Positions 1,780 through 46,276 of a DNA stretch of 64,000 nt are shown here, piece by piece. The stretch's first letter is position 1. Each line of letters begins with the position of its first letter. The DNA comes from Candidatus Parcubacteria bacterium (lineage in GTDB: Bacteria; Patescibacteriota; Minisyncoccia; SURF-38): assembly GCA_003599335.1 (NCBI GenBank), contig QZJN01000014.1, positions 1,432-65,431 of the forward strand, written 5' to 3'. The notes under the pieces are model-generated. The model was not told the DNA's origin and ran no database searches. It worked only from the letters and a program-made list of their open reading frames with translations. Made by a program: the position numbers and the translations under genes.

Positions 1780-4623
1780 ATGTCGGCTCAAAATCAAGGC
1801 AAAAAAAATAAAAGCGAGGAAATGATAGTTGTTAGGGGGGCCCGCGTTCATAACCTTAAGAATGTAAATGTAACCATACCCCGAAATAAGTTGGTGGTTA
1901 TAACTGGCATTTCAGGTTCGGGGAAATCATCACTGGCTTTTGATACGATTTATGCAGAAGGGCAGCGTCGCTATGTGGAGTCTTTATCGGCTTACGCAAG
2001 GCAGTTTCTGGGGGTTATGGATAAGCCCGACGTTGATAGTATCGAAGGTTTGAGCCCGGCGATTGCCATTGATCAAAAATCCGTTTCGAGAAATCCTCGT
2101 TCAACTGTAGGAACCATAACCGAAATTTACGATTATTTAAGGCTTTTATTCGCGCGTATAGGCAAGCCGCATTGTCCGCAATGTTCCCGGTCGGTAGTTT
2201 CTCAAAATGTTACCCAAATTACCGATAGGATTTTGGATCTGCCAAAAAATTCAAGCATCGTGGTTCTTGGCCCAATTATTAAAGGAGTAAAAGGAATTCA
2301 CAAAAGCGTTTTGGAAACCATAAGTCGGGCCGGCTATATCCGTGTCAGGGTTGATGGCGAGATTTATACAATTGAAGAAGCCTTAAAGTTGGAACTTGGC
2401 AGATACAAGATTCATTATATTGAAGCCGTTGTCGATAGATTTGCTTTAAATCAAGAAATTGATAGAGCTCGCATTGCAGAGTCTGTTGAAACTGCAATTA
2501 AACTTGGAGAGGGGACAATGATTGTTCAACTCGGCTCCCCCGAAAAAGAAAAGAAAGATCTTTTGTTTTCGGAAAAGCTTACTTGTTTGAATTGTGGTAT
2601 CTCAATTTCCGAGATTGAACCAAGAACTTTTTCTTTCAATTCTCCTCACGGCGCCTGTTCTTCCTGTACCGGTCTTGGAAAAAAACTTGAAGTTGATCCG
2701 GGCCTTATTATTCCAAACCCAAAATTAACAATAGGCGAGGGAGCGATTCGTCCCTGGGCGGCAGCCTCTCATCGTGTGGGGCGGCAAGGTTGGTTCTGGT
2801 GGAAACTTGAAGAGCTTTCTTCCCACTATGGTTTTTCGGTTGATGTTTCTTGGAATTCGTTGCCGGCCAAAATCCAAAAAGTTATTTTATATGGAGCCGA
2901 TGATGAGAGTGTTGATTTTGAGGGTGTTATACCGAATCTTGAGCGGCGCTGGAAAGAAACAGATTCTGAATGGACTCGTTCTGAAATAGAAAAATATATG
3001 AATATAAAGGTATGTCCGGTTTGTAATGGTTCTCGCTTGAAACCGGAAGCTCTGGGCGTAAAGGTTTTGAACAAAAACATAGCTCAAGTTACGGCCGAAA
3101 CTATTACTAAAAATCAGGAATTTTTCAAAGAGTTGCTTGATAAAGGGATTTTAAAGGCTTCAGAGTCCAAAATAGCGTCGCCAATAATCAAGGAAATTAT
3201 TTCCAGGCTTAGTTTTTTGGTTGACGTTGGGCTGGAATATCTCACTTTAGATAGGGAATCCGAGACTTTAGCCGGGGGAGAAGCGCAGCGCATAAGGCTT
3301 GCAACTCAAATCGGGTCTCAATTGGTCGGGGTTACATATATATTGGATGAACCTTCTATAGGTCTTCATTCCAGAGATAATGGCCGTCTTTTGCAATCTT
3401 TAAAACAGCTTAAAGATTTGGGCAATACTGTCATAGTTGTTGAACACGACGAGCAAACAATGATGGAGTCTGATTGGTTGATTGATGTTGGCCCTCAAGC
3501 TGGAAGGCATGGAGGAGAGATTGTGGCAGAAGGAACTCCGCAGGAAGTTTTGAAAGGAAAAAGTTTAACGGCACTTTACCTTTCTGGAAAAGCAAAGATT
3601 GAAGTTCCCAAAACAACTCGTAAGGGGAATGGAAATTTTCTTATTATTAAGGGAGCTTCAGAGCACAATCTTAAAAATATTGACGTTAAAATTCCTCTTG
3701 GTTGTTTTGTTTGTCTTTCAGGAGTTTCTGGTTCTGGTAAAAGCACTTTAATGGACGATATTTTAGTAAAAGCGCTTTACAAATATTTTTATAATTCTAA
3801 ACAAGAACCAGGCGCTCACAAAATTATTTCCGGCAAGGAATTTATTGATAAAGTTGTTTATGTTGATCAATCTCCAATAGGGCGTACTCCTCGTTCTAAT
3901 CCGGCGACTTACACGGGTGTGTTTGGTTTTGTAAGAAGTCTTTTTGCTTCAACGCAGGAGGCAAAAGTTCGTGGCTATGGCCCCGGAAGGTTTTCTTTCA
4001 ATGTTAAAGGGGGAAGATGCGAAGCTTGTGAGGGGCAAGGTCTTAAAAAAATAGAAATGCATTTTCTTCCGGATGTTTATGTTGAATGTGAAGAATGCCA
4101 CGGCACCCGTTTTAACCGCGAGGCTTTGGAAATAAAATATCAAGGTAAAAGCATTGCCGATGTTTTAAGTATGAGCATCGAGGAAGCTTTGAAATTTTTT
4201 AAAGACGTTCCGGCAATAAAGCAAAAATTGGCGACACTAAACGAAGTCGGGCTTTCGTATATGCAACTTGGTCAGCCGGCACCGACATTATCAGGAGGCG
4301 AGGCCCAGAGAGTTAAGCTCGCAACGGAACTTTCTCGGCGCGGCACAGGGCAGACTTTATATATTTTAGATGAACCGACAACCGGTTTGCATTTCGACGA
4401 TGTTAAAAAGCTGCTCTCGGTTCTGCAGAAGCTGGTTGATAAAGGTAATACAATTTTAGTTATTGAACACAACCTAGATGTTTTGAAATCAGCCGATTGG
4501 GTTATTGATTTGGGGCCAGAAGGAGGAGAGGGTGGCGGTCAGATTATCGCTGAAGGCACCCCAAGAGAGATCGCCAAGGTTAAAAAATCATATACCGGTC
4601 AATTTTTAGCCAAACTTTTTTAG
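1780..4623 (+). CDS. uvrA: Excinuclease ABC subunit A
   Basis: GARVHNLKN, Walker A motifs GISGSGKSS and GVSGSGKST, Zn fingers, LSGGEAQR signature; ATG at 1780 preferred to TTG at 1747. Confidence 0.97.
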
Positions 4624-4652: not shown

Positions 4653-4688
4653 CTTAAAGGCTCTGACGGTGACGTCAGAGCCTTTAAG
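4653..4688. terminator. 16-bp perfect inverted repeat after uvrA
   Basis: CTTAAAGGCTCTGACG-gtga-CGTCAGAGCCTTTAAG. Confidence 0.65.
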
Positions 4689-4784: not shown

Positions 4785-5261
4785 TTGGCATCCGTAGCCC
4801 AGGCTGTTCTACCACCGGTTTTTCCACTTGCAAGGCAAAGGGTTGAGGCTTTCGCCTCCCATAGGGGGTGTTGCCGTCAACGTCCAGAAGTTCTCCCAAT
4901 GACTGAAGCCGCCATGCTGGTGGAAGAGGGAATTTGCCTGGCGCTCGATCAACTGCTTGAGCTGGGCCTTATTCTTCCTTTCAAACATCTTGATCCTGAT
5001 CATCCGTATAAGGATTTTGATGTTCCCCTGGCATGTTGTCCGTTTGTGATGCGAATCAACGGCACGAGTTCCACTCAGGCCGCGACGCGCCATATTCGGC
5101 ACCATCCGGGCCGGTATCTGCGTCAGGTTGTCATCAACCCCGCAAATGAGGAGATGATTTTTCTCCTCAAATCACGCCCCCGCAGGGCCTTGCAGGATTC
5201 TTTCCGTCTCCTGTACAGAGCAATCCGGAGGCACCGCATCAACAGCCACGGCAGTCCATGA
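4785..5261 (+). CDS. Hypothetical basic protein, GC-rich, SD-led
   Basis: AGGAGGTG at 4772-4779 before the TTG start; hairpin 5247-5278 spans the stop; no recognisable domain. Confidence 0.5.
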   Translation: MASVAQAVLPPVFPLARQRVEAFASHRGCCRQRPEVLPMTEAAMLVEEGICLALDQLLELGLILPFKHLDPDHPYKDFDVPLACCPFVMRINGTSSTQAATRHIRHHPGRYLRQVVINPANEEMIFLLKSRPRRALQDSFRLLYRAIRRHRINSHGSP

Positions 5262-5385
5262 AAGTTCGGACTGCCGTGAATTTTTACAAAAAACAAAGAT
5301 TAAATAATATTTTAATAATTACGTCAATAGAAAAATTTAGCTTGTTTTCTTATTTTTATATTATCTAAGCTCTAAATTCCCCAAG

Positions 5386-5429
5386 TTATCCCCAAAACCC
5401 TTTGACATAGTTTTTTAATTTGCTAAATT
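5386..5429 (+). promoter_or_regulatory. Sigma70 promoter of the putative large ncRNA, with upstream DnaA-box-like 9-mer
   Basis: TTGACA 5402-5407, extended -10 TGcTAAATT 5421-5429; TTATCCCCA 5386-5394. Confidence 0.7.
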
Positions 5430-5435
5430 AGCTTC

Positions 5436-5950
5436 ACGTTCTCTGGATCGTTAAACACGTACTTGGATGGCCCTTAAACAAGGTCACCCACCTCGATAAA
5501 TGTCCAAACCATCCCTTAAACAAGGATATAAGGGCAATCTAACGGCTCAATAACGGTATAAGACCTACTGACACTCCCAAGTCCTCAAAAGGGACTGAAG
5601 GAATCGGCGGGAATAAAACCGCAGTTGACTCGTTAGAGTCGCAACAATAATCGGGGTAGCGCTCCGGGTAGACACCGTCTTACCAACGGCGTTGACTCGA
5701 AGCAAGGTAAAAAAGGAAGGATGCGAGGGGCAACTCTTGCATATGGGTACGTTTTGACCCGTGCGACGTCAAGCGAGACGTCACAATGATTGGAAGCTAA
5801 TAACTTCCAATGGTAAAACTGCCGCAAGGTAGTAACAATACCCGTAGGCCTTAAAACCTACGCATAAGCCAGCTGGCAACCCGCAAGGTTAGGGGAAACC
5901 CAACCAGCTTCGGCGAAGGGCCTTACCTTCCGACAACCATCCAGAGAACT
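5436..5950 (+). ncRNA. Putative large structured noncoding RNA (~510 nt), class unassigned
   Basis: 5' GTTCTCTGGAT (5438-5448) is exactly complementary to 3' ATCCAGAGAAC (5939-5949); more than 10 hairpins including GCAA/GAAA tetraloops; own promoter and terminator; no credible ORF. Confidence 0.8.
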
Positions 5951-5962
5951 CGTTCTCATCCC

Positions 5963-6000
5963 GGGGCGGCCGTCAACTGACGATCGCCCCTTTCTTTTTT
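5963..6000 (+). terminator. Intrinsic terminator ending the ncRNA transcript
   Basis: GGGGCGGCCGTC-aact-GACGATCGCCCC followed by TTTCTTTTTT. Confidence 0.8.
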
Positions 6001-6015
6001 CTAAACACAGAGCCC

Positions 6016-6075
6016 TTGACATGGGTTTTTTATTTTTGCTAATTTGTATTAGCAATCATAATTAAAGAGTGCTAA
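6016..6075 (+). promoter_or_regulatory. groESL promoter with CIRCE (HrcA operator)
   Basis: TTGACA 6016-6021, TGcTAATTT ~6037-6045; TTAGCAATC-N9-GAGTGCTAA at 6049-6075, one mismatch to the CIRCE consensus TTAGCACTC-N9-GAGTGCTAA. Confidence 0.88.
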
Positions 6076-8124: not shown

Positions 8125-8159
8125 CGTTTTGGCTTTGCAAAATGTTATTTTTAGAAGTA

Positions 8160-8333
8160 ATGATTGAAATCTTGGAACAAAACCAAAACGAATATTATCG
8201 TTGCCCGGAATGCATGCACGTTTATGAATTGAAAGAAATGGCCAGGGGTTGTGAAAAATGGTGCCGTAATCATAAGGGTTGTAATCTGGAAATCATTTCC
8301 GAATCAGTAGAGCTTGGTCAAATAAAGATTTAA
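8160..8333 (+). CDS. Small Cys-rich, probably Zn-binding protein
   Basis: YRCPECMHVY..GCEKWCRNHKGCNLEI. Confidence 0.6.
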   Translation: MIEILEQNQNEYYRCPECMHVYELKEMARGCEKWCRNHKGCNLEIISESVELGQIKI

Positions 8334-8386
8334 CTTGACTCATTATCTAAACGGAGCTAAAACTCAAATTGAAAGGGAGGTGCTCT

Positions 8387-8683
8387 TTGTTTTCATTGGA
8401 GTCTTTAGAAGACGCATTGGCGAAGCGATTCGCCGCCGACACCGAAGAAAAGAACGCGAGGGCAATCTTTGAACTTGGCAGAGTCTGGCTTGAAGCATCG
8501 CATGAAGATGTTGTTGCTTTGGCAGATATGATGATAAGGGTTGGCGAAGATGAGGATTTTGTAGAAGCCTATCCTTTTTTATCATATATTGTTTTCTCGC
8601 TGCCAAGTTTTCCAAACAGAAAAGACGTTATAACTTTTCTGTGGAACCTACGTCAGAGATTTGCCCGTTTCGCCATCAATTAG
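8387..8683 (+). CDS. Small hypothetical protein, probable paralog of 8780-9049
   Basis: TTGACT(8335)-17-TAAAAC promoter, SD AAGGGAGG, TTG start at 8387, hairpin 8681-8714. Confidence 0.65.
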   Translation: MFSLESLEDALAKRFAADTEEKNARAIFELGRVWLEASHEDVVALADMMIRVGEDEDFVEAYPFLSYIVFSLPSFPNRKDVITFLWNLRQRFARFAIN

Positions 8684-8779
8684 CCCGTCTGTTTTTGTAA
8701 AAACCGGCGGGCTAAACTTTTTATTGACACTAAATTAATATTCATATATAAAGCTTTGTAGCTCCAACGGAGGGATCAA

Positions 8780-9049
8780 ATGCCTGAAGACAACGAGTTG
8801 TTGTTGGTGAATCTCGAAGAAGCTTTGGGCAAAAACGGAACATGCCCGGATTTTTTCAAGATGGCAACGGATGAAGACATTGAGTATTTTGTCTGTTCCA
8901 TCTTGGGCCTTCAAGAAATCGGAGACTTGGAAGAAGAATGCCCTCGGATCTCTGATTTTTTGGAAGATAACCTCGATGGTCCGATCAACGAAAAAAATCT
9001 CCGTGGTTTCTTTTTCACAATTCGCTCAAAAGCCAACGGGGTCAATTGA
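8780..9049 (+). CDS. Small acidic hypothetical protein
   Basis: TTGACA(8724)-17-TATAAA promoter, SD GGAGGG, hairpin 9053-9082. Confidence 0.7.
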   Translation: MPEDNELLLVNLEEALGKNGTCPDFFKMATDEDIEYFVCSILGLQEIGDLEEECPRISDFLEDNLDGPINEKNLRGFFFTIRSKANGVN

Positions 9050-10627: not shown

Positions 10628-10717
10628 GGAAGGGTCGCATAGTGGTCTAGTGCGCTCGCTTGGAAAGCGAGTAAGGGGTTACTCCCTTCGCGAGTTCGAA
10701 TCTCGCCCCTTCCGCCA
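10628..10717 (+). tRNA. tRNA-Ser (anticodon GGA), CCA encoded
   Basis: Acceptor GGAAGGG/CCCTTCC, anticodon arm CTCGC-TTGGAAA-GCGAG, long variable arm, T-loop GTTCGAATC. Confidence 0.96.
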
Positions 10718-11825: not shown

Positions 11826-11863
11826 CTAAATCGCCGGTTAATAACTGTTAACCGGCGATTTAG
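11826..11863. repeat. Palindrome A2, core GCCGGTTAA-N6-TTAACCGGC
   Basis: CTAAATCGCCGGTTAA-taactg-TTAACCGGCGATTTAG. Confidence 0.9.
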
Positions 11864-11960
11864 CTGTCTGCTATTGCTTGCTATATTTATATTTTGCATT
11901 GAAAGTTAGTTTAGTCGTTGACTTTTGAGGAAACGCCAATATATACTGCCTTCAAAACAC

Positions 11961-14576
11961 ATGCCCGCAAATTGGAAAATATTTGCCGGAGGGGCTATGG
12001 TGATAACTCTATTTTTAATTTTTTCTCACGGCGTTTCCGCTCAAACGCTTGGTTGGGTAAAGGAAAGCACTAACGCAGCTCCCTTTGCCGAATTTCTTCA
12101 CGAGATGGTCTACGATGCTGCCCGTCAAGAGGTTATCTTATTTGGAGGCGTATATAACCCATCTTTTAATTTGTTTCCGTTGCTGGACCATACGGTAGCT
12201 TGGAACGGCACAACCTGGGTTTCAAAAACTCCTTCGGTGAGTCCTCCTCCTCGAATAGAGCACGGGATGGCCTACGATGGCGCCCGTCAAGAAGTTATTT
12301 TATTTGGAGGGGGCACTGCTCCAGGCTTGTTTATAAACCGCACCCCACTCAACGACACTTGGATTTGGGATGGGGCAACATGGCAACAAAAATTCCCAAG
12401 TAATAGCCCTACTCCTCGGAGTAATTTTGGCATGGCTTACGATGCAGAGCGCAATGAAACGATTTTGTTTGGAGGACAAGATCCTGCTCCAACTCTAACA
12501 TGCTGTCTCCAAGATGACACTTGGGCCTGGAACGGAACAGATTGGTTCCAAAAGTCTCCAACCTTAAGTCCGTCCAGGCGTTCTCATCACCAGATGGTCT
12601 ACGACTCTGCCAGAAAACAAATTATTCTGTTTGGCGGCATCGATGCCAGTGGCCAACTTCTCAATGATATTTGGGTTTGGGATGGTACAAATTGGGAATT
12701 GAAATCTTCAACCACAAGCCCTTCGTTAAGGACTAATTTTGCAATGACGTTTGATGAGTCCTTGCAGAAAGTCGTTTTGTACGGTGGGCAAGGAACGGCA
12801 GGAAGTTTAGATGATACATGGGTATGGGACGGTAATGATTGGGCTCAACTTTCTGTCTCAAGCAAGCCGCCACCGCAACGGCTCCACGATATGGTTTATG
12901 ATGCTTCACGCAAGGAAATAGTTATGTACGGAGGAGATGGCGCTCTTCGCGAAACTTGGACACTGCCGACCGGTTCTCAAAAACGCCCGGTCATCCTAAT
13001 CCCGGGGATATTAGGAAGTTGGGAGAAAGACGGCGAACTGGCGCTTGATCCAATTTTGCACACCTACGACAATTTATGGGAGGCTCTAAAGTTAGCCGGT
13101 TATGAAGAAGATAAAGACTTATTTGCTTTTCCTTATAATTGGAGATCTTCGAATAACCTTACAAGTTTATCTCTTAAACAAAAGATTGAGGACGTAAAGA
13201 ATATCTGCCAATGTCTAAAAGTGGACATTGTTGGGCATAGTATGGGCGGATTGCTTGCGCGATCATATATTTAGGGCGGAGATTATCAAAGTGACGTTGA
13301 AAAGTTAATTTTTCTTGGGGTGCCACACCTTGGTTCGCCAAGAGCTTATTTAGCATGGGAAGCTGGAGAGTTTGGAACCGGTCCATTTAATTTTATTAGG
13401 GAAAATCTACTAACCCTAGAAGCTATAAGTGGTGGTTATGGAAGCCTTTTTAATTATGTTAAAAATTTGCCAATTTTATCAATTCAAGAACTCTTGCCAA
13501 TTTATGACTACCTGCGCGAAGATAGTACTCTTCAACTAAGGCAATATCCAAATAATTATCCACGCAATATCTTCCTTGAAATCTTAAACGAGCAATTATT
13601 AGTTGATAGGCTGGATGGTCTAGATGTAACAAATATTATCGCCGATGCTGGGCAACAAAGCACCATTAAGTCATTTAGGATAGTAAATCAACAATTTTTG
13701 GACGGTAAATGGGAGCATGGTTATCCAGAAAATTATGGCGTGCCATTTACAGATCAAGGTTTAGAGGTTGGCCCAGGAGATAATACGGTTCCAGAAGATA
13801 GTAACTCAAACTTTTCTAATGCAGAAGAAATTATTATACAAAGTGACCACGACGGTATAGTTACCGATGCCCAGAAAGCTATTATTAAGGAACTGACTGG
13901 TGTCGAGCCAACGCAGGAAGTGCGACTCAATTTCTTTCAAAAGTATCTTATGATACGAATTTTTTCACCGGCTGATTTTGTGGTTATAGCCCCAGACGGT
14001 AAAAGGCTTGGTAAGGATTTTGCATCAGGTCAAGTTTTAGAAGAGATATCGAGTGCTTTTTACAGCGGATTTAATACAAACGTTGAGTTTGCGGTTATTC
14101 CAGATCCTATTGATGGGCAATATCAGATTGAGTTGCAGGGAACCGGAGATGGCTCTTATAGATTAGTTACAAGTTATATTGATGAGCAAACTGATATTGA
14201 TAATGAATTTTACGGCGCCATCAGCACAATTCAGGAACTTGAATTTATTTTTGATTATAATTCCCAAAATCAAAATCCCGTAAGCGAGTTAGAAATCATT
14301 TACTCGTTGAATGATTTTAGAGATGATATTGAAAAAGCATATCAGTTGGGATGGATAAGTAAAGAAAGCGTAAGGGGTCAGTTCATTCATCAGGCAGATA
14401 GTTTAGATAAGAAATTGGGAATTATAATTGAGCCTCATGCTCGTGCAAACGTTATTGGTAACTCACTTAATGTCATTAAAAACATCGCTAATGCACATCT
14501 TAAGAGCAGTTCAATAAATCAGCTAGCTTATGATATGATAATAAGTAGCATTGATTACTTACTAAATAATTTATGA
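11961..14576 (+). pseudogene. Secreted Kelch-like beta-propeller plus alpha/beta-hydrolase (PGAP1/LCAT-like lipase), interrupted by one in-frame TAG at 13272-13274
   Basis: Six MxYDxxRxxxILFGG..DTWxWDG-like repeats; PVILIPGILGS, YNWR, GHSMGG; frame continues past the TAG as GGDYQSDVEKLIFLGVPHLGSP into ORF 13320-14576. Confidence 0.75.
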
Positions 14577-16792: not shown

Positions 16793-17485
16793 ATGATTAC
16801 AAAAATCAAAAAATCTAATGACGCGACAGCTTATCTAAAAACTTCTGTTAATAAAATATTAAATTATTTACGGAAGATAGTTAGTAATAAAAAATTTAAT
16901 TATAGAACTTTCGGCACTAGTATAGAAGAACATCTTACCGATATTTTGGTTAAGTTATTTACGGAGGGTGGTTTTATAGAAAATAATAAAGATTACGTTG
17001 TTGCGCTCAATAAAAATTATTTCCCAGATTTTGAATTAAAAACCACGCCTCCACTTGCTATTGAGTTTAAATCTGGTAATAAGAGTCAGTATAGAAAGGA
17101 GAAGTGGGTTGTTGTTAAAAACAGCGAGAACGATATGGGAACATTAAATGAATGGCCACAAAAAATTAAGAAATTTGGCGGGGATAACATTTATTATATT
17201 TTCGTTATTTATAATTTTAATGATCAAACTGAAGAGGTTTTAAATGTTGAAATAGCTCCATTCTACCAATTTATAGGATTGAATAAGGGAAAGGTGCTTA
17301 AATATAGAGAGAAAGATGGCAACTTGAGGCCAAAAGATTTTGAATCTAATTCTCCTATAAAGACCTTAAAACAATTTGAAGATTTATTGAATAAAACTGT
17401 AATTTATAGATCTAAACGAGTAATCAAAAAACACCGTTCGATTATTAAAAAAGTTGCTCAAACTTCTAAAAAAGAGTTGGGCTAA
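16793..17485 (+). CDS. Putative type II restriction endonuclease (PD-(D/E)xK)
   Basis: YFPDFEL..AIEFKSG motif; very AT-rich; convergent with and overlapping a DNA MTase. Confidence 0.7.
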   Translation: MITKIKKSNDATAYLKTSVNKILNYLRKIVSNKKFNYRTFGTSIEEHLTDILVKLFTEGGFIENNKDYVVALNKNYFPDFELKTTPPLAIEFKSGNKSQYRKEKWVVVKNSENDMGTLNEWPQKIKKFGGDNIYYIFVIYNFNDQTEEVLNVEIAPFYQFIGLNKGKVLKYREKDGNLRPKDFESNSPIKTLKQFEDLLNKTVIYRSKRVIKKHRSIIKKVAQTSKKELG

Positions 17486-19028
17486 CTAATTTTTTATTTT
17501 GTTTTTTATTGTAGTTGAATTTAGGGTTGTCTATAGGATAAATGCCCTCATCTTCGGATATAGTTAAGTTCCTTAAATACTTTGAGGCAGTTTCGGGAGT
17601 ATTGCCGTTATATTTATAACCATTACTTGAACGATAATTTACTTTATCAAGTTTATTTGCGACGATTTTTTTATATTTTGGATCTATATCAATACCAATA
17701 TAATTTCGTCCGAGGCGTTTTGCGGCAAGCGCAGTTGTCCCTGCTCCAATGAATGGATCTAACACTACATCCCTTTCATCTGTAGTCATGAGTATCAATC
17801 GTTCCAATAAAGGTTCTGGGAGTTGGCATGGATGAGCGTCTCTCCGAGCGTTATGCCGAATGCGGTGTATATCTGCCCACACATCGCTTAAAAGTGTTCC
17901 ATGAGGGTGTATTTGGTTTTTCTTCCCCCCATAATCTTTAATCATTTCTCCGCAGATCCTGCATTTTTTGTGAGGTGATCTTAATTCATGAAATTTAAAT
18001 CCTTTCTGAGTTTTTGTATAAAATAAGATGCCATAATGTGCGGGTAATAGCGTTTTTCCAAGAGGCGTGCTCATTGAATCCCAAGCAATCCAGTGTTTAA
18101 ACACAGCAATTTTGTTAAGATGGTTAGCATAGTAGGTCAACCATTTTGGTATATTATGAATAAAGATTGAGCCTGTTGGTTTAGTTATTCTAACCATTTC
18201 GGTTAGCCACAACTCACACCATTTTATATAATCATCAGTTGTTTTTTTGTCTTTATAATTTCCATACTTTTTATTTAAGTTGAATGGCGGGTCTGCAAAT
18301 GTCATATCCACCGAGTTATCAGGGATCTTTTTCATTTCACTAATAGAATCTCCGCACAGGATTTCGTTCAGAGGAAGTTTTTTGTATTGTTTAATATCGT
18401 GTTTAATTTCTGGCAAAATGATAGGAGTTGTAAATTCATCTCGGATAACATCAATGACTATCCCTTGGATAGAAATATCCTTATCTTTTTTTATGATGAT
18501 TGGCTCCATGCTTTTGTTTGCCGGTTGTAATCTGATATGGCCGCGCTCTTTATAGAATTTCTTTAGGGTTGCTTCCTGATTGTCTATGAGGGCGACAACT
18601 TTTTGGCCGTTTTCGGCTGTGGCTTGATGTTTTACTAAAATAATATCTCCATCATTAATATTTTCATCAACCATGCTATTGCCAATCACTTTTAAAGCGT
18701 AAATCTCTCCGGAAGAGGGGAGTTTGTTTTTTGGCACGGCAATAGTTTCTTTTTCTTGAACCGCCTCTATGGGTTCGCCAGCCGCGATAGTGCCAAGGAG
18801 TGGAATTTTAACCATCGACTCCGTTTCAGTAATATCTATTGCCCTGTGTTGATTCCAGCCTCGTTTTAAATATCCCTTTGCTTGTAGCTTTGATATATGT
18901 TCATGAATATTTGAGGGGGAGGATAAACCGAAGTGGTCGGCTATCTCTTCAAGAGAGGGAGCGTACTGGTGCTTTTTTATGTATTTTTGGACGTAGTCCA
19001 AAACTTGTTTCTGACGTTTGGTAAGCAT
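17466..19028 (-). CDS. lexA: LexA repressor fused to an N4/N6 (beta-class) DNA methyltransferase
   Basis: LTKRQKQVLDY..APSLEEIA wHTH; IAAGEP cleavage site; GNSM and TLKKF catalytic residues; then FADPPFN and LDPFIGAGTT motifs; ATG at 19028. Confidence 0.9.
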   Translation of the reverse strand: MLTKRQKQVLDYVQKYIKKHQYAPSLEEIADHFGLSSPSNIHEHISKLQAKGYLKRGWNQHRAIDITETESMVKIPLLGTIAAGEPIEAVQEKETIAVPKNKLPSSGEIYALKVIGNSMVDENINDGDIILVKHQATAENGQKVVALIDNQEATLKKFYKERGHIRLQPANKSMEPIIIKKDKDISIQGIVIDVIRDEFTTPIILPEIKHDIKQYKKLPLNEILCGDSISEMKKIPDNSVDMTFADPPFNLNKKYGNYKDKKTTDDYIKWCELWLTEMVRITKPTGSIFIHNIPKWLTYYANHLNKIAVFKHWIAWDSMSTPLGKTLLPAHYGILFYTKTQKGFKFHELRSPHKKCRICGEMIKDYGGKKNQIHPHGTLLSDVWADIHRIRHNARRDAHPCQLPEPLLERLILMTTDERDVVLDPFIGAGTTALAAKRLGRNYIGIDIDPKYKKIVANKLDKVNYRSSNGYKYNGNTPETASKYLRNLTISEDEGIYPIDNPKFNYNKKQNKKLVSPTLF

Positions 19029-19049
19029 GCTTTTATTATAACTTAACAC

Positions 19050-19283: not shown

Positions 19284-20621
19284 GTGGCCACACAAAATCC
19301 ATTCGAAATATTAAGGGAGCTAAGGGGTATAGAATGGCCAACCAAGACTGGCTGGGTTATTTATTCTTTTGCAATTTTTCTTTTATCCTGGTTGATCATT
19401 ATGCTTCTTAAGCAAATCGGTATTGCATTGGGACCGTTGTTGGTGGGATGGATTTTGGGTGGCTTGCAGGTTGCCCATTTTATCGCGTGGGTTATGAAGA
19501 GAAATTTTTTTTATGATCCAGATGTTTTAACAATTGCTTTTGCGGTCGCCACAGAAGAAGCTTCACGCAGCTATTATAAAGAAATAAAGAAAAAGTTTCG
19601 AGAACAAATTACTGCTCATAAGCTGCAAGATGATATAAAAGTAAAAGAATTGCCAACCGATGTTAACTTTACTGATGCAAAATCAGCCGAGGCCTTTATT
19701 TTAAAAAGAGGAATAAGGCTTCTGGTGTGGGGTAATACAACAGAAGGAAATGTTGTAAATATTCCATTTTCTCAATTTAATATTCAAATATCCTATCAAT
19801 ACAGAGCTCTTAGTAAAGTAAGACAGGAAGAGTTTAAAAAAGACATTAGAACTGCAATCCAACGAAGAATGTGGGGAGTTCGTCAGTCAGAATCCTTTTT
19901 ACATCTCGCCGTTGTTTCTGGAAATATCCTGGAAATTAGTTTATATACACTTGGGGCATGCCTTGCGACAATACCGCGAGTAGATTATTTGTTAAGGTCT
20001 ATAGATATATTTGAAAACCTCCAGAATTTGCTTAAAGAGCGTAAACAAGATCTAAATTTTCCCAACCTCCAAGCTGTTAAACAAAAAACACGTTCTTTAC
20101 TTCGTGACGCCTATACCTTTTTAGTATCTTACTACATGGACTCTAAAGATTTAGATGGGGCAACTAGATATGCTGGTAAGGCGATAGAAATTGACGAGAA
20201 TAATTTTATTGCTCATCAAAACATGGCCAGACTCCAATGGGTTAAAGGCAATAAGGATCAGGCAAGCTTTCATACAAAAAGAGCATGGCATATTAGGCCT
20301 GGACATCCACTCCCAAGATTTAACAAGGCTTTTTTTCTTATTATTAATAGAAATTATGAACAGGCTTTAAAGCAGTACAAAAAAATTCGATATGTAGGAG
20401 ATACTAGTATAGTCGATGTTATAGAGTTTTTAGAAAGCGAATTTGATAAAGCTAAAGATAATTTGGGTCTTTTATTTATACCTGGATGGTTAAATATCCA
20501 GTATGCTGATCAAGTTAGGGGAGTTGCGCAACTCGAAAAGTTTCTAAAACTAGCAAACAATGATTCTATATATTCAGTGCTTATAGCAGAAGCCAGTAAG
20601 ATTCTTTCTTCTAGAAACTAG
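19284..20621 (+). CDS. Membrane-anchored TPR-repeat protein
   Basis: Two N-terminal TM helices; C-terminal TPR-like helices (ATRYAGKAIEIDENNFIAHQNMA); AT-rich. Confidence 0.7.
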   Translation: MATQNPFEILRELRGIEWPTKTGWVIYSFAIFLLSWLIIMLLKQIGIALGPLLVGWILGGLQVAHFIAWVMKRNFFYDPDVLTIAFAVATEEASRSYYKEIKKKFREQITAHKLQDDIKVKELPTDVNFTDAKSAEAFILKRGIRLLVWGNTTEGNVVNIPFSQFNIQISYQYRALSKVRQEEFKKDIRTAIQRRMWGVRQSESFLHLAVVSGNILEISLYTLGACLATIPRVDYLLRSIDIFENLQNLLKERKQDLNFPNLQAVKQKTRSLLRDAYTFLVSYYMDSKDLDGATRYAGKAIEIDENNFIAHQNMARLQWVKGNKDQASFHTKRAWHIRPGHPLPRFNKAFFLIINRNYEQALKQYKKIRYVGDTSIVDVIEFLESEFDKAKDNLGLLFIPGWLNIQYADQVRGVAQLEKFLKLANNDSIYSVLIAEASKILSSRN

Positions 20622-20665
20622 AATTTTCTAATCGGCTCGCACGAAGTGCGAGCTGTTTTAGTTTG

Positions 20666-20682
20666 ATACTTATTTAAATACG
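20666..20682 (+). repeat. 17-bp direct repeat, right copy
   Basis: ATACTTATTTAAATACG, identical at 16568-16584. Confidence 0.8.
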
Positions 20683-20798
20683 GGTTTCCCGCAACCTTTC
20701 AATGAGATTAGGATAGCCGTTTATTTGTTTTACAGCGCTTGAGGTTTCATAACGGTTCGACAAGCTCACCATAAAATGGTTTAATGCCTTATTGTTTT

Positions 20799-30246: not shown

Positions 30247-30765
30247 ATGGCAAATATAAAAATTTGTTTTAAGAGGAGAGCTTTTTCGGGATTTACCATT
30301 ATTGAATTGATTGTAGTTATAGCGATTCTCGGCATTTTGGCCGCTATTATTATTCCAAGGTTAAGAGAAGCTCGGCTTGAAGCCCAGAAAGCCCAAGCAA
30401 TTTTAATGCTTAGTCAGATTCAACGAGCCATAGGATTTCTTGAAACAGATTCCGATCAATGGCCCGGGCATGTGGCGCCGGGAACAATTCAAAGCGGAGC
30501 AAGCGGTAATGAAATGTGGAATTTGAATGGGGATGAAGCGGGGCTGGTTTTGAGCGATGGGGCTTTTCCAAATTGGAAAGGACCCTATATTTCAAGCATA
30601 CCAAGAGACCCGTGGGGAAATCATTATTTTTTTGATACTGACTATGACATTGATCCTGGAGCGGGCCAGACTTGGGCTTCGGTTGTTGGTTCGTTTGGGC
30701 CAAATGGACAAGGACAAAACGTTTACGATAGCGATAATATAATTGTTGTATTTGCAGTAGAATAA
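30247..30765 (+). CDS. Type IV pilin / GspG-like pseudopilin
   Basis: Prepilin cleavage motif G|FTIIELIVVIAILGILAA; WKGPYI..PRDPWG. Confidence 0.9.
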   Translation: MANIKICFKRRAFSGFTIIELIVVIAILGILAAIIIPRLREARLEAQKAQAILMLSQIQRAIGFLETDSDQWPGHVAPGTIQSGASGNEMWNLNGDEAGLVLSDGAFPNWKGPYISSIPRDPWGNHYFFDTDYDIDPGAGQTWASVVGSFGPNGQGQNVYDSDNIIVVFAVE

Positions 30766-30767
30766 CG

Positions 30768-30797
30768 AAAACACCCGCCTGCAAGGCGGGTGTTTTT
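30768..30797. terminator. Bidirectional terminator
   Basis: AAAACACCCGCCT-gca-AGGCGGGTGTTTT. Confidence 0.8.
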
Positions 30798-30799
30798 GC

Positions 30800-31084
30800 T
30801 TAAGAAACATCTCGATGGGTTTCGTACATAAATGAGGCGTCTGGGTTGTGAGTTTTCAAAAGCTCTATTATTTTGCGAAAGATTTCGTTTGAATTGACCT
30901 CGTCCCTGTTTGAAATCCAGGAATTAATTTCCCACATTATTTTCTCGGCTATTTTTTCGGATTGTTCTTTGTTAAGGTGAGCGTTTAAACAGGCCGAATA
31001 GACAGAAGCATAGACTTTCTTTTCATCAAAAGGTTCCTTGTGGCCCTGACGTTTTACTATATGAGCAACTTCCATATCAGCCAA
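30800..31084 (-). CDS. Stand-alone ATP-cone domain protein
   Basis: IVKRQGHKEPFDEKKV. Confidence 0.8.
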   Translation of the reverse strand: MADMEVAHIVKRQGHKEPFDEKKVYASVYSACLNAHLNKEQSEKIAEKIMWEINSWISNRDEVNSNEIFRKIIELLKTHNPDASFMYETHRDVS

Positions 31085-31787
31085 AATTAATGGTGCCGTT
31101 GGCTATTAGTATTAAAAGCCAGGCCAGAGCAATAAGCAAGAGGCCGGTTGCTAGCCTCATTGTTCCTCTATTTGCTTGTTTCCACATCTTTATATCTTGC
31201 AGTTTTTTACCAGCAGCGACCATAAAGAGAATTATTATCAATGGCGATACAAATATAATGTTATAAAATACAAGCAGCATGAAGGCCGTAAAATCGAAGT
31301 ATTGGGAAAGGACAGTGATTATTGCAAGATAAGGAGCGCCGGTGCAGGGGAGTTCAACAGCCGAAACAAAAGCCCCCAAAAACGCAACTCCCCAAACGGT
31401 TGTTTTTGAAGCAAAGCCATGAAGCATTTTGGCAAATACGGGCGGGATCATTAAAGAAAAACCTTCCCCATACCAAAAGTAATCTTTTATTTCGATTAGG
31501 CCGGCGATAACTATCAAGACAGCGACTCCAATTGAAAGATATTCGGTTACCGCAAGGGGAATTTGAGAAAGGAAGTAAACAAGTCCAAGCCCGGCCGCAA
31601 GATAAACGGCAAGGATCGAGAGTATATAAACAGTCCCCAAAAACAGCATTCTTCGAATTGATTGCCCGCCAGCCAAAACAACCGAAAGCATCAAAATCAA
31701 AACGCCGATCGCGCATGGATTGATTGAGTCAATCGCCGCCGTTAAAAAAACTGTCAGTATTGTCGGTAATGAGGATTCAATTCCCAT
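31077..31787 (-). CDS. CcdA/DsbD-like transmembrane electron transporter (copy 1)
   Basis: DSINPCA and ELPCTGAPY Cys pair, multiple TM. Confidence 0.85.
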   Translation of the reverse strand: MGIESSLPTILTVFLTAAIDSINPCAIGVLILMLSVVLAGGQSIRRMLFLGTVYILSILAVYLAAGLGLVYFLSQIPLAVTEYLSIGVAVLIVIAGLIEIKDYFWYGEGFSLMIPPVFAKMLHGFASKTTVWGVAFLGAFVSAVELPCTGAPYLAIITVLSQYFDFTAFMLLVFYNIIFVSPLIIILFMVAAGKKLQDIKMWKQANRGTMRLATGLLLIALAWLLILIANGTINFG

Positions 31788-32874: not shown

Positions 32875-35481
32875 TTATGTGGAGTTTTTTCTGAATCGCC
32901 ATTTAATTATTTCAATTATAATAACCTTTAAAAGGCTCAAACCTATCACCGCGAGCAGGCTCATTAGGGGTAGGGGGGCTGTTTTAAGGAGTGTATTTAA
33001 GGCCGGATGGTATATTGCTCCAAATACCATGAGTAAACCAAAGGCGACTGCGGCCAAAACGAAAGGGTTGTTGAATAATTTTGTTTTAGTGATTGGCTGG
33101 CGTAGGGATTTTATTGAAAATATGTAAAAGAGGATATTGATGCTCAAAACGGCAAAGATAAAGGTTTGCACATTGATCGTTGGTATATTTGTGAAAAAAT
33201 GTAGATACATGAATACTCCTCCTAAAATTAAGTCGGATATGATTCCGGCTATAAAAATCATCAACCAACCCTCTTTGTCTATAATCGGTTCGGAACGTTT
33301 TATTGGTTGTCGTTTCATTATGTCCGATTCTCCTTTTTCAAAGGCCAAAGAAAGGCTTGGTAGGGCGTCTTGGACAAGATTGGCCCATAATATTTGGGTT
33401 GCTGTAATTGGTAGGGGAGTTTTAAAGATGAGGGCAAGAAAAGAAAGAATCAGTTCCGTGAAAGAGGTTATCAATAAAAGTATTGTCACTTTTCTGATAT
33501 TATCAAAGGCTATTCTTCCGTGTTCTATGGCTGAAATTATAGTCGAAAAACTGTTGTCTAAAAGCACCAAGTCGGCGGCTTCTTTTGTTACATCTGTTGC
33601 CGATCCTACGGCGACTCCGATATCTGCCGCCCTTAAAGCCGGAGCGTCATTAATGCCATCGCCGGTCATGGCTACAGAGGCACCGTTTGCCTGCCAGGCC
33701 TGAATAATTCTCATTTTATGTTTGGGATTTACTCTTGCGAATATCTCTATACCTTTGATTTTTTGTTTTAAGTCTTCATCGGATAAGGCATCCAAGTCTT
33801 TTGCTTCCATAATAGATTCTGGGTTTCCGTTCAGGCCGAGCTCTTTACCGATTGCCTCGGCTGTTAAACGATGATCTCCGGTAACCATAACAACTCCAAG
33901 GCCGGCTTCTTTTGTTATTTTTATTGTTTCTTTAACATCTTCGCGTATTGGATCTCGGATTGCGGCAAGGCCTATAAAGGTTAAGTCTTTTATATAATCG
34001 TAAGGCTGCTCTTGGGATTCTAATATTTTTGGATCAGCCTGAATTTTTGCATGGGCGCATCCAATGACCCGATATCCGCTTTTTGCTAAAGATTCATAAA
34101 GATTTTCAAGTTCTGTTTTTTTATCCTCGGTTAAATTTAATACCCCGTTTTGATGCCAAGCACTTGAAGACAGGCCGAGCAAAATTTCCGGAGCCCCGCT
34201 TACAAAAACTTCGGTCGATTTTTTATCCTCACCCAAATTGAAAGAAGCCAGGTATTTTTTGGTCGGATCAAAAGGCAAAAAATTTATTCTTGGAGATTTT
34301 TCAAGCAATTCTTCAAGGCTACCTCCTTTGTTTACAAAAAATTCCATTTTTGCTTTATCGGTCGCATCGCCTTTTATTTGCCATTCATTATCGTGGCGTT
34401 CGGCGACGGCTTCGTTGGCCAGGGCGAGGATTTTCATGGCAAGTTCATCGGCATCATCGGTAAAGAGTTTTTCAAGCTTCATAATGCCTTCCGTAAGAGT
34501 GCCTGTTTTATCGGAACAAATTACGGTTGCCGAGCCGAGGGTTTCGGCCGCTAAAATATGTTTTACAAGACCCTTCTTTTTAAGGATGTGTTGCGAAGAG
34601 ACCGCCAAAACAACCGATAATGCGGCCGGCAGGCCCTCGGGGATGGCTGCAACAGCTACGGCAACGGCCAAGGTGAACATTTCGACAATATCTCTTGATT
34701 CAAGCAACCCGGAAACAAAAATCAAAAAAGCGGCTATACCAACAAAGGCCGTTAGGACCTTGCCGAGTCCAGCTATGCGTTGCTGGAGCGGGGTGATAAC
34801 CTCTTCGGCTTTTTGGGTTAGGTTTGCGATTTGACCAACCTCGGTTTTTGCTCCGGTTGATGTAACAATAACAATGGTTTCGCCCTCCTCAACGGTTGTT
34901 CCCATGAAGACCATATTGTTCTGATCGGCCAAAGGAGTTTCTTTTTCCGTGACGCCAACGATTTTTTTTACTGGAGTTGATTCTCCGGTGAGTATGGCCT
35001 CATTCATCCTTAAATGGCGCGTTTGGAATATTCTTCCATCGGCCGGAGCCTTCATTCCCGGTTTCAGGATGATTATATCTCCGGGCACAACCTCTTCAGC
35101 ATCAACCTCAAATGTTTTTTTATCTCTTATTATTCTGGCTTGAACTTTTACAATTTGACGCAGTTTTTCAAAAATATTTCCCGAACGATATTCCTGATAA
35201 AAACCGACCAAAGTGTTTACTATAACTGCCGCCAAAATAACACTTGTATCCGTGTATTCTTTGAGCCAAGCCGTCATACCGGCCGCCGCAAGCAATATTA
35301 TTACGAGCGGACTGTTAAATTGTTTCAAGAATAAAAGCCACCAAGGAATTTTTTTGCCCTGGGGCAGGGCATTCCGTCCGTATTTTAGAAGCCTTTCTTT
35401 TGCTTCTTTTTGAGTCAGACCGGTTTTGGGGTCTGTGTTGAGCTGTTTGATTGTTTCCTCAAGAGTAATATCGTGCCACAT
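32875..35481 (-). CDS. P-type (P2, Ca2+/cation) transporting ATPase
   Basis: LTGES, IPEGL, DKTGTLT, TGDH, GDGINDAP. Confidence 0.95.
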   Translation of the reverse strand: MWHDITLEETIKQLNTDPKTGLTQKEAKERLLKYGRNALPQGKKIPWWLLFLKQFNSPLVIILLAAAGMTAWLKEYTDTSVILAAVIVNTLVGFYQEYRSGNIFEKLRQIVKVQARIIRDKKTFEVDAEEVVPGDIIILKPGMKAPADGRIFQTRHLRMNEAILTGESTPVKKIVGVTEKETPLADQNNMVFMGTTVEEGETIVIVTSTGAKTEVGQIANLTQKAEEVITPLQQRIAGLGKVLTAFVGIAAFLIFVSGLLESRDIVEMFTLAVAVAVAAIPEGLPAALSVVLAVSSQHILKKKGLVKHILAAETLGSATVICSDKTGTLTEGIMKLEKLFTDDADELAMKILALANEAVAERHDNEWQIKGDATDKAKMEFFVNKGGSLEELLEKSPRINFLPFDPTKKYLASFNLGEDKKSTEVFVSGAPEILLGLSSSAWHQNGVLNLTEDKKTELENLYESLAKSGYRVIGCAHAKIQADPKILESQEQPYDYIKDLTFIGLAAIRDPIREDVKETIKITKEAGLGVVMVTGDHRLTAEAIGKELGLNGNPESIMEAKDLDALSDEDLKQKIKGIEIFARVNPKHKMRIIQAWQANGASVAMTGDGINDAPALRAADIGVAVGSATDVTKEAADLVLLDNSFSTIISAIEHGRIAFDNIRKVTILLLITSFTELILSFLALIFKTPLPITATQILWANLVQDALPSLSLAFEKGESDIMKRQPIKRSEPIIDKEGWLMIFIAGIISDLILGGVFMYLHFFTNIPTINVQTFIFAVLSINILFYIFSIKSLRQPITKTKLFNNPFVLAAVAFGLLMVFGAIYHPALNTLLKTAPLPLMSLLAVIGLSLLKVIIIEIIKWRFRKNST

Positions 35482-42367: not shown

Positions 42368-44773
42368 TTAGTTTTTATTTTTTTCTTGTTTGGATACAGC
42401 GACAATTGTTTTTACTATACTATCGGGGTTTAGAGAAATACTCTGAATTTTATTTTTGACTAAAAATTTTGCAAATTCTGGATAATCCGACGGCGCCTGG
42501 CCGCAAATACCGATATATTTTTTCTTTTGTTTAGATTTCTCTATTATTTTGGCAATCAATTTTTTAACCGAATCATCATTTTCATTGGCGATGTGAGTTA
42601 CGATGCCAGAATCTCTATCAAGTCCCAAGGTTAATTGGGTTAAGTCGTTTGAGCCGATGGACATACCGTCAAATATTTTTAAGAACTCATCAGCCAAGAT
42701 AATATTTGAGGGTATTTCACACATTACGTAAACCTTGAGAGTTTTATCTTTTTTTCTATCAAGGCCATGCTTTTTCATTATTTCAAGAACCATTTTTCCT
42801 TCCCCCGGTGTTCTGCAGAAGGGAATCATGGGCACTATGTTCTTTAGTCCCATTTTATTCCTCGCCTTTTTAAGGGCTAAACATTCAAGACCAAAAGCTT
42901 CTTTAAATTTGGGGTCATAATATCTGGAAGCTCCTCGCCAACCGAGCATGGGATTTTCTTCGTTTGGCTCATACAATTCTCCGCCAATAAGTTTGCGGTA
43001 TTCGTTGGTTTTAAAGTCTGAAAAGCGAATAATAACTTCATTTGGCCAAAATGCCGCTCCAATTTTTGCTATTCCCTCGGCGAGTTCATCAATATAATAA
43101 CTGGTTTTGTTTTTATATCCGGTAGTCAGTTCGTCGATCTGTTTTTTAAGACCGCTAGATTTTATTTTTTTGTAGTTAATAAGAGCATTGGGATGGATTT
43201 TTATGTGGGATGCGATTATAAATTCTACTCTCCCAAGTCCGACTCCACTTGTCGGCAAAAAGTGATTTTTGAAGGCTTCGTCAGGAGAGCCGATGTTTAC
43301 CATTATTTTTGTTTTTGTTTTCGGTATTTTGTCGAGGCGATGTTCGATGATTTGAAATGGTAATTTGCCTTTGTAAACGAAACCGGTTTCTCCGGATGAG
43401 CAGTCTATGGTTATTTGTTCCCCGTTTTTGAGCTTTCTTGTCGCATTTGATGTTCCGACAATGCAGGGGATGCCAAGCTCTCTGGAGACGATCGCCGCGT
43501 GGCTTGTGCGACCGCCCTTATCCGTGACAATGGCCGAGGCTATTTTCATAATCGGTTCCCAATCGGGGTCTGTTATTTCGGTAACCAAAACCTCATTCTT
43601 TTTGAACAGACTTAGCGCTTTTGAATTTTTTATTATTTTGGCTTTGCCGGCTGAAATTTTGGTGCCGACAGCGGCGCCGGAGCATAAGTCAACCCCTTTT
43701 CTTTTGAGGCGATATTCTCGGTAGATGTTTTTATCGGCAAGCGAATGGACGGTTTCTGGTCTAGCTTGAACTATAAATAATTTTTTAGAGCGTCCGTCTT
43801 TTGCCCATTCGATATCCATCGGCTGGTAATGGCCGGTTTTTTTAGAGAAATAATCTTCAATTTTAATACACCAGGAAGCAAGTTTTAAAATTTCATCCTC
43901 GGAAAGGCAGAGGGATGTTTTTTCGGAGACCGATGCGGAAACTTTTTTTGTTCCGTGCTTACCGTATATAAGTTTAGTTGCCTTTGAGCCCAAGTCTTTT
44001 GCTATAATTGATTTAAAACCATGCTTAAGAGTTGGTTTAAAGACGATAAATTCATCAGGAGTAACTTTACCCTGAACTATCATTTCGCCAAGACCCCATG
44101 AGCCGTTGATTATAACAACATTGTCAAAGCCGGTCTCGGTGTCCAGTGTAAAGGCGACGCCGCTTGAGCCAAGATCGGAACGAACCATTTTTTGAATTGC
44201 TACGGATAGAGAAATATCAAAGTGAGAAAAACCCTTATCAACCCGATAGGAAATTGCTCTGTCGGTAAATAAGGAAGCGAAACATTTTTTGACTGAAATT
44301 AAAACTTCATTTATGCCGACAACATTAAGGTATGTCTCTTGTTGTCCTGCAAATGAAGCTCCCGGCAGATCTTCGGCCGTTGCCGAAGAGCGGACGGCAA
44401 CATCTGGTTTATTAAAATAAATTTTACCGAGCCTTTCGTAAGCTTCGGTTATAGCCTTTATCAGTTCTGGCGGGAGGGGAGATTGTAATATAAGTTGTCT
44501 CACGGCTTTACCCTTCATTTGTAAAGCTTTTATATTTTTGGTGTTCAATCCGGAAAGCAGCGTTCTTATTTTTGTATCAAGTTCAGATTTTTTTAGGAAA
44601 TAACGATATGCCCCGGCCGTTATTGCAAAGCCGTTGGGCACCGAAATTCCAAGCGGCGTGAGATTCGAGTGCATTTCGCCAAGTGAAGCATTTTTACCGC
44701 CGACCAAAGACACGTCGTTTATATTTATTTCTTTGAACCAGAGTATGAAAGCGTCTTTTTTGGAAATTTTCAT
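42368..44773 (-). CDS. ppsA: Phosphoenolpyruvate synthase (pyruvate, water dikinase)
   Basis: GGKNASLGEM, VRSSATAEDL, TSHAAIVSRE, SIGSNDLTQ, GICGQAPSD. Confidence 0.96.
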   Translation of the reverse strand: MKISKKDAFILWFKEININDVSLVGGKNASLGEMHSNLTPLGISVPNGFAITAGAYRYFLKKSELDTKIRTLLSGLNTKNIKALQMKGKAVRQLILQSPLPPELIKAITEAYERLGKIYFNKPDVAVRSSATAEDLPGASFAGQQETYLNVVGINEVLISVKKCFASLFTDRAISYRVDKGFSHFDISLSVAIQKMVRSDLGSSGVAFTLDTETGFDNVVIINGSWGLGEMIVQGKVTPDEFIVFKPTLKHGFKSIIAKDLGSKATKLIYGKHGTKKVSASVSEKTSLCLSEDEILKLASWCIKIEDYFSKKTGHYQPMDIEWAKDGRSKKLFIVQARPETVHSLADKNIYREYRLKRKGVDLCSGAAVGTKISAGKAKIIKNSKALSLFKKNEVLVTEITDPDWEPIMKIASAIVTDKGGRTSHAAIVSRELGIPCIVGTSNATRKLKNGEQITIDCSSGETGFVYKGKLPFQIIEHRLDKIPKTKTKIMVNIGSPDEAFKNHFLPTSGVGLGRVEFIIASHIKIHPNALINYKKIKSSGLKKQIDELTTGYKNKTSYYIDELAEGIAKIGAAFWPNEVIIRFSDFKTNEYRKLIGGELYEPNEENPMLGWRGASRYYDPKFKEAFGLECLALKKARNKMGLKNIVPMIPFCRTPGEGKMVLEIMKKHGLDRKKDKTLKVYVMCEIPSNIILADEFLKIFDGMSIGSNDLTQLTLGLDRDSGIVTHIANENDDSVKKLIAKIIEKSKQKKKYIGICGQAPSDYPEFAKFLVKNKIQSISLNPDSIVKTIVAVSKQEKNKN

Positions 44774-44789
44774 TTTCTTTTTTTAATAG

Positions 44790-46073: not shown

Positions 46074-46096
46074 TTATCTGTGGCTTTATTTTTTTA

Positions 46097-46276
46097 TTAA
46101 TCATCAAGAGATGTATCTGGTGCATATTTTTCCGGTTCTTTGTCGAAGTGAGTTTTGCAACCTCTGGAACAAAAGTAATATTTTTCGCCGTTGTATTCGC
46201 TTGTTTCTTCGGTGTTTTCAAAGGGTATTTCCATCCCGCAGACGACATCAAATATTTTTGTCGTTTTTTGGTCCAT
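46097..46276 (-). CDS. YHS-domain protein (59 aa, not in the ORF track)
   Basis: Hand translation ..DVVCGMEI..SEYNGEKYYFCSRGCKTHFDKEPEKY. Confidence 0.85.
   Translation of the reverse strand: MDQKTTKIFDVVCGMEIPFENTEETSEYNGEKYYFCSRGCKTHFDKEPEKYAPDTSLDD

Follow-up and report, generated by a model that had tools for sequence, protein, structure and literature searches.

The RNA gene analyzed here lies between uvrA and an orphan ORF on one side and the groES-groEL pair on the other, with the start of groES 130 nt downstream on the same strand. The host genome comprises 690,606 bases in 14 contigs and is 100% complete, and its closest relatives among the genomes compared belong to the same class at nearest. 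In the window, by which we mean the whole 64,000-nt stretch of DNA that was analyzed, the sole tRNA is found at position 10628, and the tRNA closest to the RNA gene is 4.7 kb away. No prophage was seen at the locus: the Pfam hits of 60 window proteins include no phage structural, integrase, transposase or reverse transcriptase family, and the retron test for an adjacent reverse transcriptase gene likewise found no such family in the window. The genome carries its RNase P RNA on another contig (C14:102254-102602, 88 bits) and its tmRNA on contig C14 (ARAGORN), and it encodes HrcA. The features of the RNA gene and its flanks are collected in Table 1.

Table 1. The RNA gene and its flanking signals (positions in the window)
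Feature	Position	Strand	Evidence and remarks
Sigma-70-type promoter, extended -10	5402-5429	+	promoter scan, 10/12 matches; predicted start ~5436
RNA body	5436-5949	+	strong fold, single copy; transcript predicted to run to ~5998
P1 closing helix, 11 bp	5438-5448 / 5939-5949	+	pair probability 0.98
Three 5' hairpins with a common 7-nt loop word at 5451, 5474 and 5516	5449-5527	+	5449-5459, 5468-5486, 5511-5527
Branched long arm (variable 5' domain) ending in hairpin 5580-5596	5490-5657	+	helix probabilities 0.59-0.99
Interrupted hairpin between the domains	5661-5703	+	p 0.86-0.91
Conserved 3' core	5708-5931	+	multi-helix junction, A-rich linkers; RNA-library contigs and covariation test
Hairpin A, GNRA loop	5721-5742	+	X4: one base inserted per strand adds a pair
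Hairpin B	5743-5762	+	invariant where covered; provides one loop of the candidate kiss (5751-5757)
Hairpin C	5765-5782	+	5766/5781 and 5767/5780 changed on both sides in X4; G-U in X1, X2a, X3
Hairpin D	5789-5811	+	p 0.99; variable loop; pair at 5793 broken in X2b
Hairpin E, GNRA loop	5818-5833	+	X2b: two bases inserted per strand, all pairs kept
Hairpin F	5843-5862	+	5844/5861 changed on both sides in 5/5 contigs; provides the second loop of the candidate kiss (5851-5857)
GAAA-capped subdomain, two competing folds	5868-5914	+	among variants only 5871 differs
Intrinsic terminator hairpin and U tract	5963-6000	+	hairpin 5963-5990 with U tract, z -4.84; not called by scan
groES promoter (probable)	6012-6046	+	imperfect direct repeat of the RNA's promoter; not called by promoter scan
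Inverted repeat ahead of groES, presumably CIRCE-like	6049-6075	+	sequence reading

The orphan ORF directly upstream of the RNA (4785-5261, +) has a GC content of about 53% and a length of 120 to 158 codons, is followed by a strong hairpin (5247-5278), and yielded no homolog of similar length, no family and only Atlas matches under 0.9. Behind uvrA lies a perfect hairpin of 14 pairs (4655-4686, z -7.1), probably a terminator. Elsewhere in the window, three short ORFs between groEL and lemA (8142-9049) have no Pfam family at the cutoff; a Kelch-repeat and LCAT-like hydrolase appears to be split over ORFs 11925-13274 and 13320-14576 (+), just past its nucleophile motif, a possible frameshift or pseudogene; and a 527-aa ORF at 17469-19049 (-) combines a LexA DNA-binding domain, an S24 peptidase and an N6/N4 DNA methylase.

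The original prediction, made from the sequence alone, had proposed a large noncoding RNA with its own promoter and terminator, and all 15 sequence stretches checked at its coordinates read as described. The promoter is called by the scan, and the RNase P RNA gene of the genome is preceded by the same promoter type. The terminator hairpin folds and carries a U tract, although a consensus scan does not call it. The GC content of the RNA is indeed elevated (about 0.49, compared with 0.41 for the contig), and the region holds no credible ORF, the longest stop-free runs being 50 codons on the + strand and 74 codons on the - strand. Transcription of the RNA is only indirectly supported; contigs from RNA libraries, on which part of our analysis draws, give neither strand nor expression level, and such libraries can contain DNA.

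When the promoter segment 5398-5430 was compared with 235 genomic TTGACA sites, the best other match was the site ahead of groES (score 18, the next being 14), and the RNA gene is bracketed by these two imperfect direct repeats, 5398-5430 and 6012-6046. The closeness of the two sites suggests a local duplication that accompanied the arrival of the RNA gene. All 29 relatives examined, of 233 with a groES match, lack similar sequence upstream of groES, and in four of those 29, uvrA and groES are no more than 1.5 kb apart, with other genes in the interval. The RNA gene looks inserted ahead of groES. The relatives L060 (356-1330) and L071 (386-1378) carry a nucleotidyltransferase-like gene of 324 to 330 aa between uvrA and groES. 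A replacement of hrcA by the RNA was considered and dropped, since the genes between uvrA and groES in the four relatives include nucleotidyltransferase-like ORFs (two of the four) and not HrcA.

On the + strand, the RNA folds at -209.8 kcal/mol, compared with -160.2 +/- 6.3 kcal/mol in 100 dinucleotide shuffles (z -7.84), and its two halves taken separately reach z -4.88 and -3.77. The - strand folds comparably (z -7.75), so that folding energy does not fix the strand; the assignment to the + strand rests on the promoter, the terminator, the GNRA loops and the variants described below. In the same genome, 24 of 306 GC-matched segments of 516 nt fold at least as well, which makes the energy by itself unremarkable here, and a separate draw of 345 genome segments gave a mean of -164 with a standard deviation of 18. 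Given the folding of the - strand and these 24 equally good segments, single-sequence folding could not settle the case. Stretches that fold equally well or better are located at C9 ~34700-35330, C1 ~2480-3000, C5 ~20060-20750, C14 ~44670-46140, C11 ~30660-31360 and C8 ~11830-12500.

The predicted fold retains the pairing of the first 11 nt with the last that had been proposed originally, and it revises several of the interior helices. A 3' domain closed by 5704-5710/5923-5929 gives way to one closed by the likelier helix 5715-5720/5926-5931 (p 0.78), and two contigs diverge just upstream of 5708. The hairpin 5627-5640 is outcompeted by the long arm, in which 5538-5551 pairs with 5624-5637 (p 0.96 to 0.99). 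The junction 5871-5909 competes with an alternative fold and is kept as one of two candidates. In the 5' domain, the first of the three hairpins, 5449-5459, is weak (p 0.38); the cluster of three identical loop words is the only one of its kind in the genome, and a 7-mer of any sequence occurred three times within 100 nt in 17 of 2000 shuffles. The original prediction had noticed neither these repeated loops nor the candidate kissing loop described below.

A search of Rfam 15 with the whole region and with each half returned nothing at the gathering score and only weak matches at E <=10, in agreement with the possible novelty that had been proposed. The GOLLD model (RF02032, threshold 150 bits) has no match at the locus at E <=10, and its best score in the genome, 11.6 bits, lies on another contig. 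No match was obtained with ROOL (RF03087, threshold 99.1 bits), a result carried by the locus search, as the genome-wide model search was silent in control genomes too. The same silence of the controls applies to the genome-wide search with OLE (RF01071, threshold 50 bits), which also gave no match, and oapA is not among the neighbors of the RNA (uvrA, the orphan ORF and groES). At the locus, there is no match to RNase P RNA (RF00010), no tmRNA found by ARAGORN, no catalytic-core model match to group I or group II introns, permuted group II included, no ribozyme or intron model matching at E <=10, and no match to small-ribozyme models on either strand. The RNA was thus rightly held to be distinct from RNase P RNA, tmRNA and group II introns, and the genome's RNase P RNA and tmRNA lie elsewhere. 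We found no description of such an RNA in the literature, in a search that covered mainly open-access papers. It may be an unnamed candidate in the supplements or databases of PMC8040213, of PMC5737381 or of a preprint with 5.14 million intergenic clusters (bioRxiv 10.64898/2026.10.21.760802), which would lower its novelty.

BLAST with the whole RNA matched none of 60 relatives; among 400 genomes of the class, 17 had matches of 18 to 32 nt (E <=0.05), none of which extended under nhmmer, and the four such loci that were inspected look protein-coding. The 3' core alone gave short chance matches in 2 of 400 genomes of the phylum and nothing in 105 genomes of one order. Single-sequence covariance models, which are weak and were run on overlapping genome samples, found nothing in 150 class and 150 phylum genomes (R1) or in 150 class genomes (R2). 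Scans with exact patterns, which miss distant relatives, gave no true match among 10 in metagenomes, none at all and then five false ones in genomes of all species, and 12, 0, 0, 3, 0, 25, 11 and 0 matches, none of them true, in eight scans of viral contigs; BLAST against phages and plasmids found no match. These DNA searches may omit records very near the genome of the window. The earlier idea of a gene retained in a reduced genome finds no support here in the sense of an ancient, widespread gene, as no other searched genome has the RNA and the gene looks inserted before groES.

Relatives of the RNA were obtained from RNA libraries. Five runs were found in a run index. Four of them contain 7 to 12% of the sampled words (the share in the fifth, X5, is 0.00), and these four are all RNA libraries from soil or sediment, contributed by three studies. 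When the four (X1 to X4) were aligned at a likeness of at least 80%, seven pieces resulted, of which five fall on 5708-5931 and two, 37 nt each and from unrelated contigs, on groES. The five core contigs are 161 to 237 nt long with a depth of 3 to 5; four share 95 to 99% and one 90 to 95% likeness with the window, and together they represent three distinct variants (one common to X1, X2a and X3; one in X2b; one in X4). No contig at this likeness covered the 5' domain, the promoter or the terminator, and groES itself drew only the two unrelated 37-nt pieces; such absence of cover proves nothing. We tabulated 14 substituted positions and five indels, and X1, X3 and X4 each carry one additional difference without a placed position.

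The pair 5844/5861 differs on both sides in all five contigs, which counts as one event because only the window sequence differs. The pairs 5766/5781 and 5767/5780 are G-U in X1, X2a and X3 and are changed on both sides in X4. Hairpin A is lengthened in X4 by one base on each strand, and hairpin E in X2b by two bases on each strand in addition to a change from G-U to A-U, with all pairs valid in both as we read the alignment. In total, there are three both-sided pair changes and two stem-lengthening paired indels, compared with at most two broken pairs: 5793 in hairpin D (X2b) and, in three contigs, 5871, which would break the end pair of the 5871/5909 helix. In a permutation test, the three both-sided pairs of X4 were reached in none of 100,000 random placements, and the joint P value was 0.014 for X1 and 0.020 for X2b; the test used eight helices from the predicted fold that were chosen after the contigs had been seen, and it omitted the stems 5812/5841 and 5871/5909, position 5821 and the indels.

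The 3' core is under selection for base pairing. This selection acts on the + strand, as the original prediction had argued from the GNRA loops and G-U pairs: the changes of X1 break no pair on the + strand and two of three on the - strand, so that the changes creating G-U pairs fit the + strand only. The homologs with covarying stems for which that prediction had called thus exist in the 3' core, as five RNA-library contigs, and their conservation is not codon-like, since frame-breaking indels of one and two bases in two of the five contigs leave no conserved reading frame. In X1 and X4, which come from two studies, the first base is the same, 11 nt before 5708, and the 11 diverged letters are identical; the five contigs all stop between 5901 and 5931 without a loose end. 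As contigs cannot show RNA ends, the shared start is a weak hint only.

Several tertiary contacts can be proposed from complementarity. The loop of hairpin B (5751-5757) could form seven pairs with the loop of hairpin F (5851-5857), making this a candidate kissing loop; the sole variant change in either loop, at 5852 in three of the five contigs, would turn a G-U into a G-C pair, and the loop of hairpin B also matches 5585-5590 over six pairs. The segment 5469-5475 is complementary to 5916-5922 over 7 bp, crossing 5715-5720/5926-5931, and is a possible long-range pseudoknot of a length that chance supplies: besides P1, five 7-bp complements were found in the RNA, and several are expected by chance in 516 nt. 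A possible palindromic loop of 4 nt (5871-5874) is no longer palindromic in three of the five contigs.

Taken together, we consider it highly probable that the locus encodes a real, conserved structured RNA. The Rfam negatives, the covarying homologs and the non-codon-like changes support the proposal of a large multidomain noncoding RNA outside Rfam, and the gene looks like an undescribed large structured RNA that fits no family; its 3' half is supported independently by covariation, and its mechanism is proposed by analogy. Bacterial RNAs of large size and intricate fold are uncommon and often show unusual biochemistry (PMC5737381).

As to function, our leading reading, to which we would give a little less than an even chance, is a new class similar to GOLLD and ROOL, in which a conserved 3' core and a variable 5' domain form a self-assembling structural scaffold. 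We favor it because the conserved 3' and variable 5' regions, the candidate kissing loops and the lack of an evident protein partner make up the GOLLD pattern. In this scenario, the housekeeping-type promoter would yield one abundant transcript of about 515 to 560 nt, with P1 holding its two ends together. The 3' core would pack through its A-rich linkers, its GNRA loops and the kiss between 5751-5757 and 5851-5857, formed within one chain or between chains to give a stable dimer or cage, and the faster-changing 5' domain would present its three identical loops as repeated docking sites. The RNA would serve a structural purpose, to bind or sequester a partner, rather than coding or cis-regulation of groESL. 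The loop change in hairpin F, which improves the kiss in three of five contigs, fits such a scaffold, as does the finding of partial matches only in RNA runs (four of four) when the DNA pattern scans gave no true copy; presence in RNA runs and absence from DNA collections are what rare cells making an abundant RNA should leave. The kiss, however, rests on one change, and oligomer formation does not follow from size: in PMC12286853, raiA stays monomeric, and HEARO is disordered when its protein is absent.

Instead of assembling with itself, the RNA might act through proteins, as a decoy or as the scaffold of a ribonucleoprotein, with the 5' loops as protein sites and a 3' core that folds only with its partner. 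We regard this as improbable on balance, though deserving of weight. CsrB-type sponges provide a comparison for repeated protein-binding loops, and the three identical loops, unique in the genome, would suit such binding. They belong, however, to the region that lacks conservation at 80%. The orphan ORF directly upstream on the same strand could encode a partner, but it has no relatives or family, so no conserved partner can be named. OLE, for its part, binds at least six proteins (PMC12286853).

Sequence identity of at least 95% that extends from the stems into the linkers, and recurs in three studies, would also suit a new large ribozyme or self-processing RNA with a catalytic 3' core, the pseudoknot 5469-5475/5916-5922 and a cut near 5697. 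RNase P RNA combines a nested closing helix with crossing long-range helices, and the 7-bp complement needed for a comparable topology does exist here, albeit at a length expected by chance. The shared start of X1 and X4 could mark the cut, but it may equally be an assembly break or a reverse transcription stop, and no ribozyme or intron model matches at E <=10; we hold this explanation to be rather unlikely. Slightly less likely again is a passenger, that is, a mobile or RNA-replicating element (a satellite, a viroid-like RNA or a phage RNA gene) copied in at the groES promoter, with the contigs representing the free element. The two similar promoters bracketing the gene, its absence upstream of groES in all 29 relatives, four of which have uvrA within 1.5 kb of groES, the homologs confined to RNA runs and the good folding of both strands all speak for it. 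Such an element is harder to reconcile with a single copy, the lack of small-ribozyme matches on either strand, eight viral scans and a phage and plasmid BLAST without a true match, changes that fit the + strand only, and a promoter and terminator that bracket the RNA exactly. A bolder formulation, which we still consider unlikely, is that of a new catalytic or self-processing class (or a captured, autonomously propagating RNA) whose core of about 230 nt is near-invariant across soils and sediments, is cut or starts near 5697, and was missed by genome surveys as abundant RNA and rare DNA.

A cis-acting groESL leader, acting as a riboswitch, thermosensor or attenuator, is very improbable. The RNA does lie on the same strand shortly upstream of groES, and the best weak Rfam match, c-di-GMP-I at 5802-5884 (23.4 bits, E 0.011 to 0.03), might be read as a divergent aptamer. 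That score is under the 35-bit cutoff, and the alignment unpairs hairpin F, whose pair 5844/5861 covaries in all five contigs, which disfavors the aptamer. The RNA is followed by a terminator, groES has its own promoter-like site and a presumed CIRCE-like repeat, with HrcA encoded in the genome, and no such leader occurs in the 29 relatives. Equally hard to credit, and already largely refuted, is a spacer rich in GC whose folding is accidental, or a set of hairpins acting as DNA: the 24 of 306 segments that fold as well and the lack of a DNA homolog are outweighed by both-sided changes, G-U intermediates, paired indels and at least 95% identity to sequences from three unrelated studies.

The self-assembling scaffold reading bears on a question left open by PMC12286853, in which three bacterial RNAs were recently revealed as protein-free dimers and cages: how widely large natural RNAs form cages. 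A further class, unrelated in sequence and under strong selection, would allow a direct test, and the compact 230-nt core is suited to probing and cryo-EM. More generally, such RNA classes can show in RNA data while missing from sampled genomes.

Among named large RNAs, RNase P RNA shares with the present RNA the ends paired in a closing helix, the promoter type and possibly the crossing long-range helices, but it has no match at the locus and its own copy on another contig. Circularly permuted group II ribozymes are likewise free-standing large RNAs of obscure role; as described in PMC8637638, they measure about 900 nt and carry D5 and D6 at the 5' end, and no group II match was found here. 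OLE is of similar size, and a possible protein scaffold and a possible palindromic loop are further points of likeness, whereas the model match and an OapA-like neighbor (Pfam) are missing and the hosts differ. ROOL resembles our RNA in size (mean 581 nt), ornate fold and orphan function, but highly conserved bases are few in ROOL and its halves are intertwined (PMC5737381, PMC12286853), unlike the near-invariant 3' half found here. The RNA is a member of neither GOLLD nor ROOL. From GOLLD, it differs in length (about 515 nt compared with often more than 800), in giving no model match and in lacking a prophage or adjacent tRNA; GOLLD and ROOL often occur in prophages near tRNAs (PMC12286853, PMC5737381). 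In PMC12286853, GOLLD is conserved in its 3' region and variable in its 5' region, and kissing loops and A-minor contacts are the bridges of GOLLD, ROOL and OLE. Our RNA, with contigs at a likeness of at least 80% on 5708-5931 only and three variants only, shares that division, and it is like GOLLD in being large, apparently protein-free and multijunction, with A-rich linkers and a candidate kissing loop.
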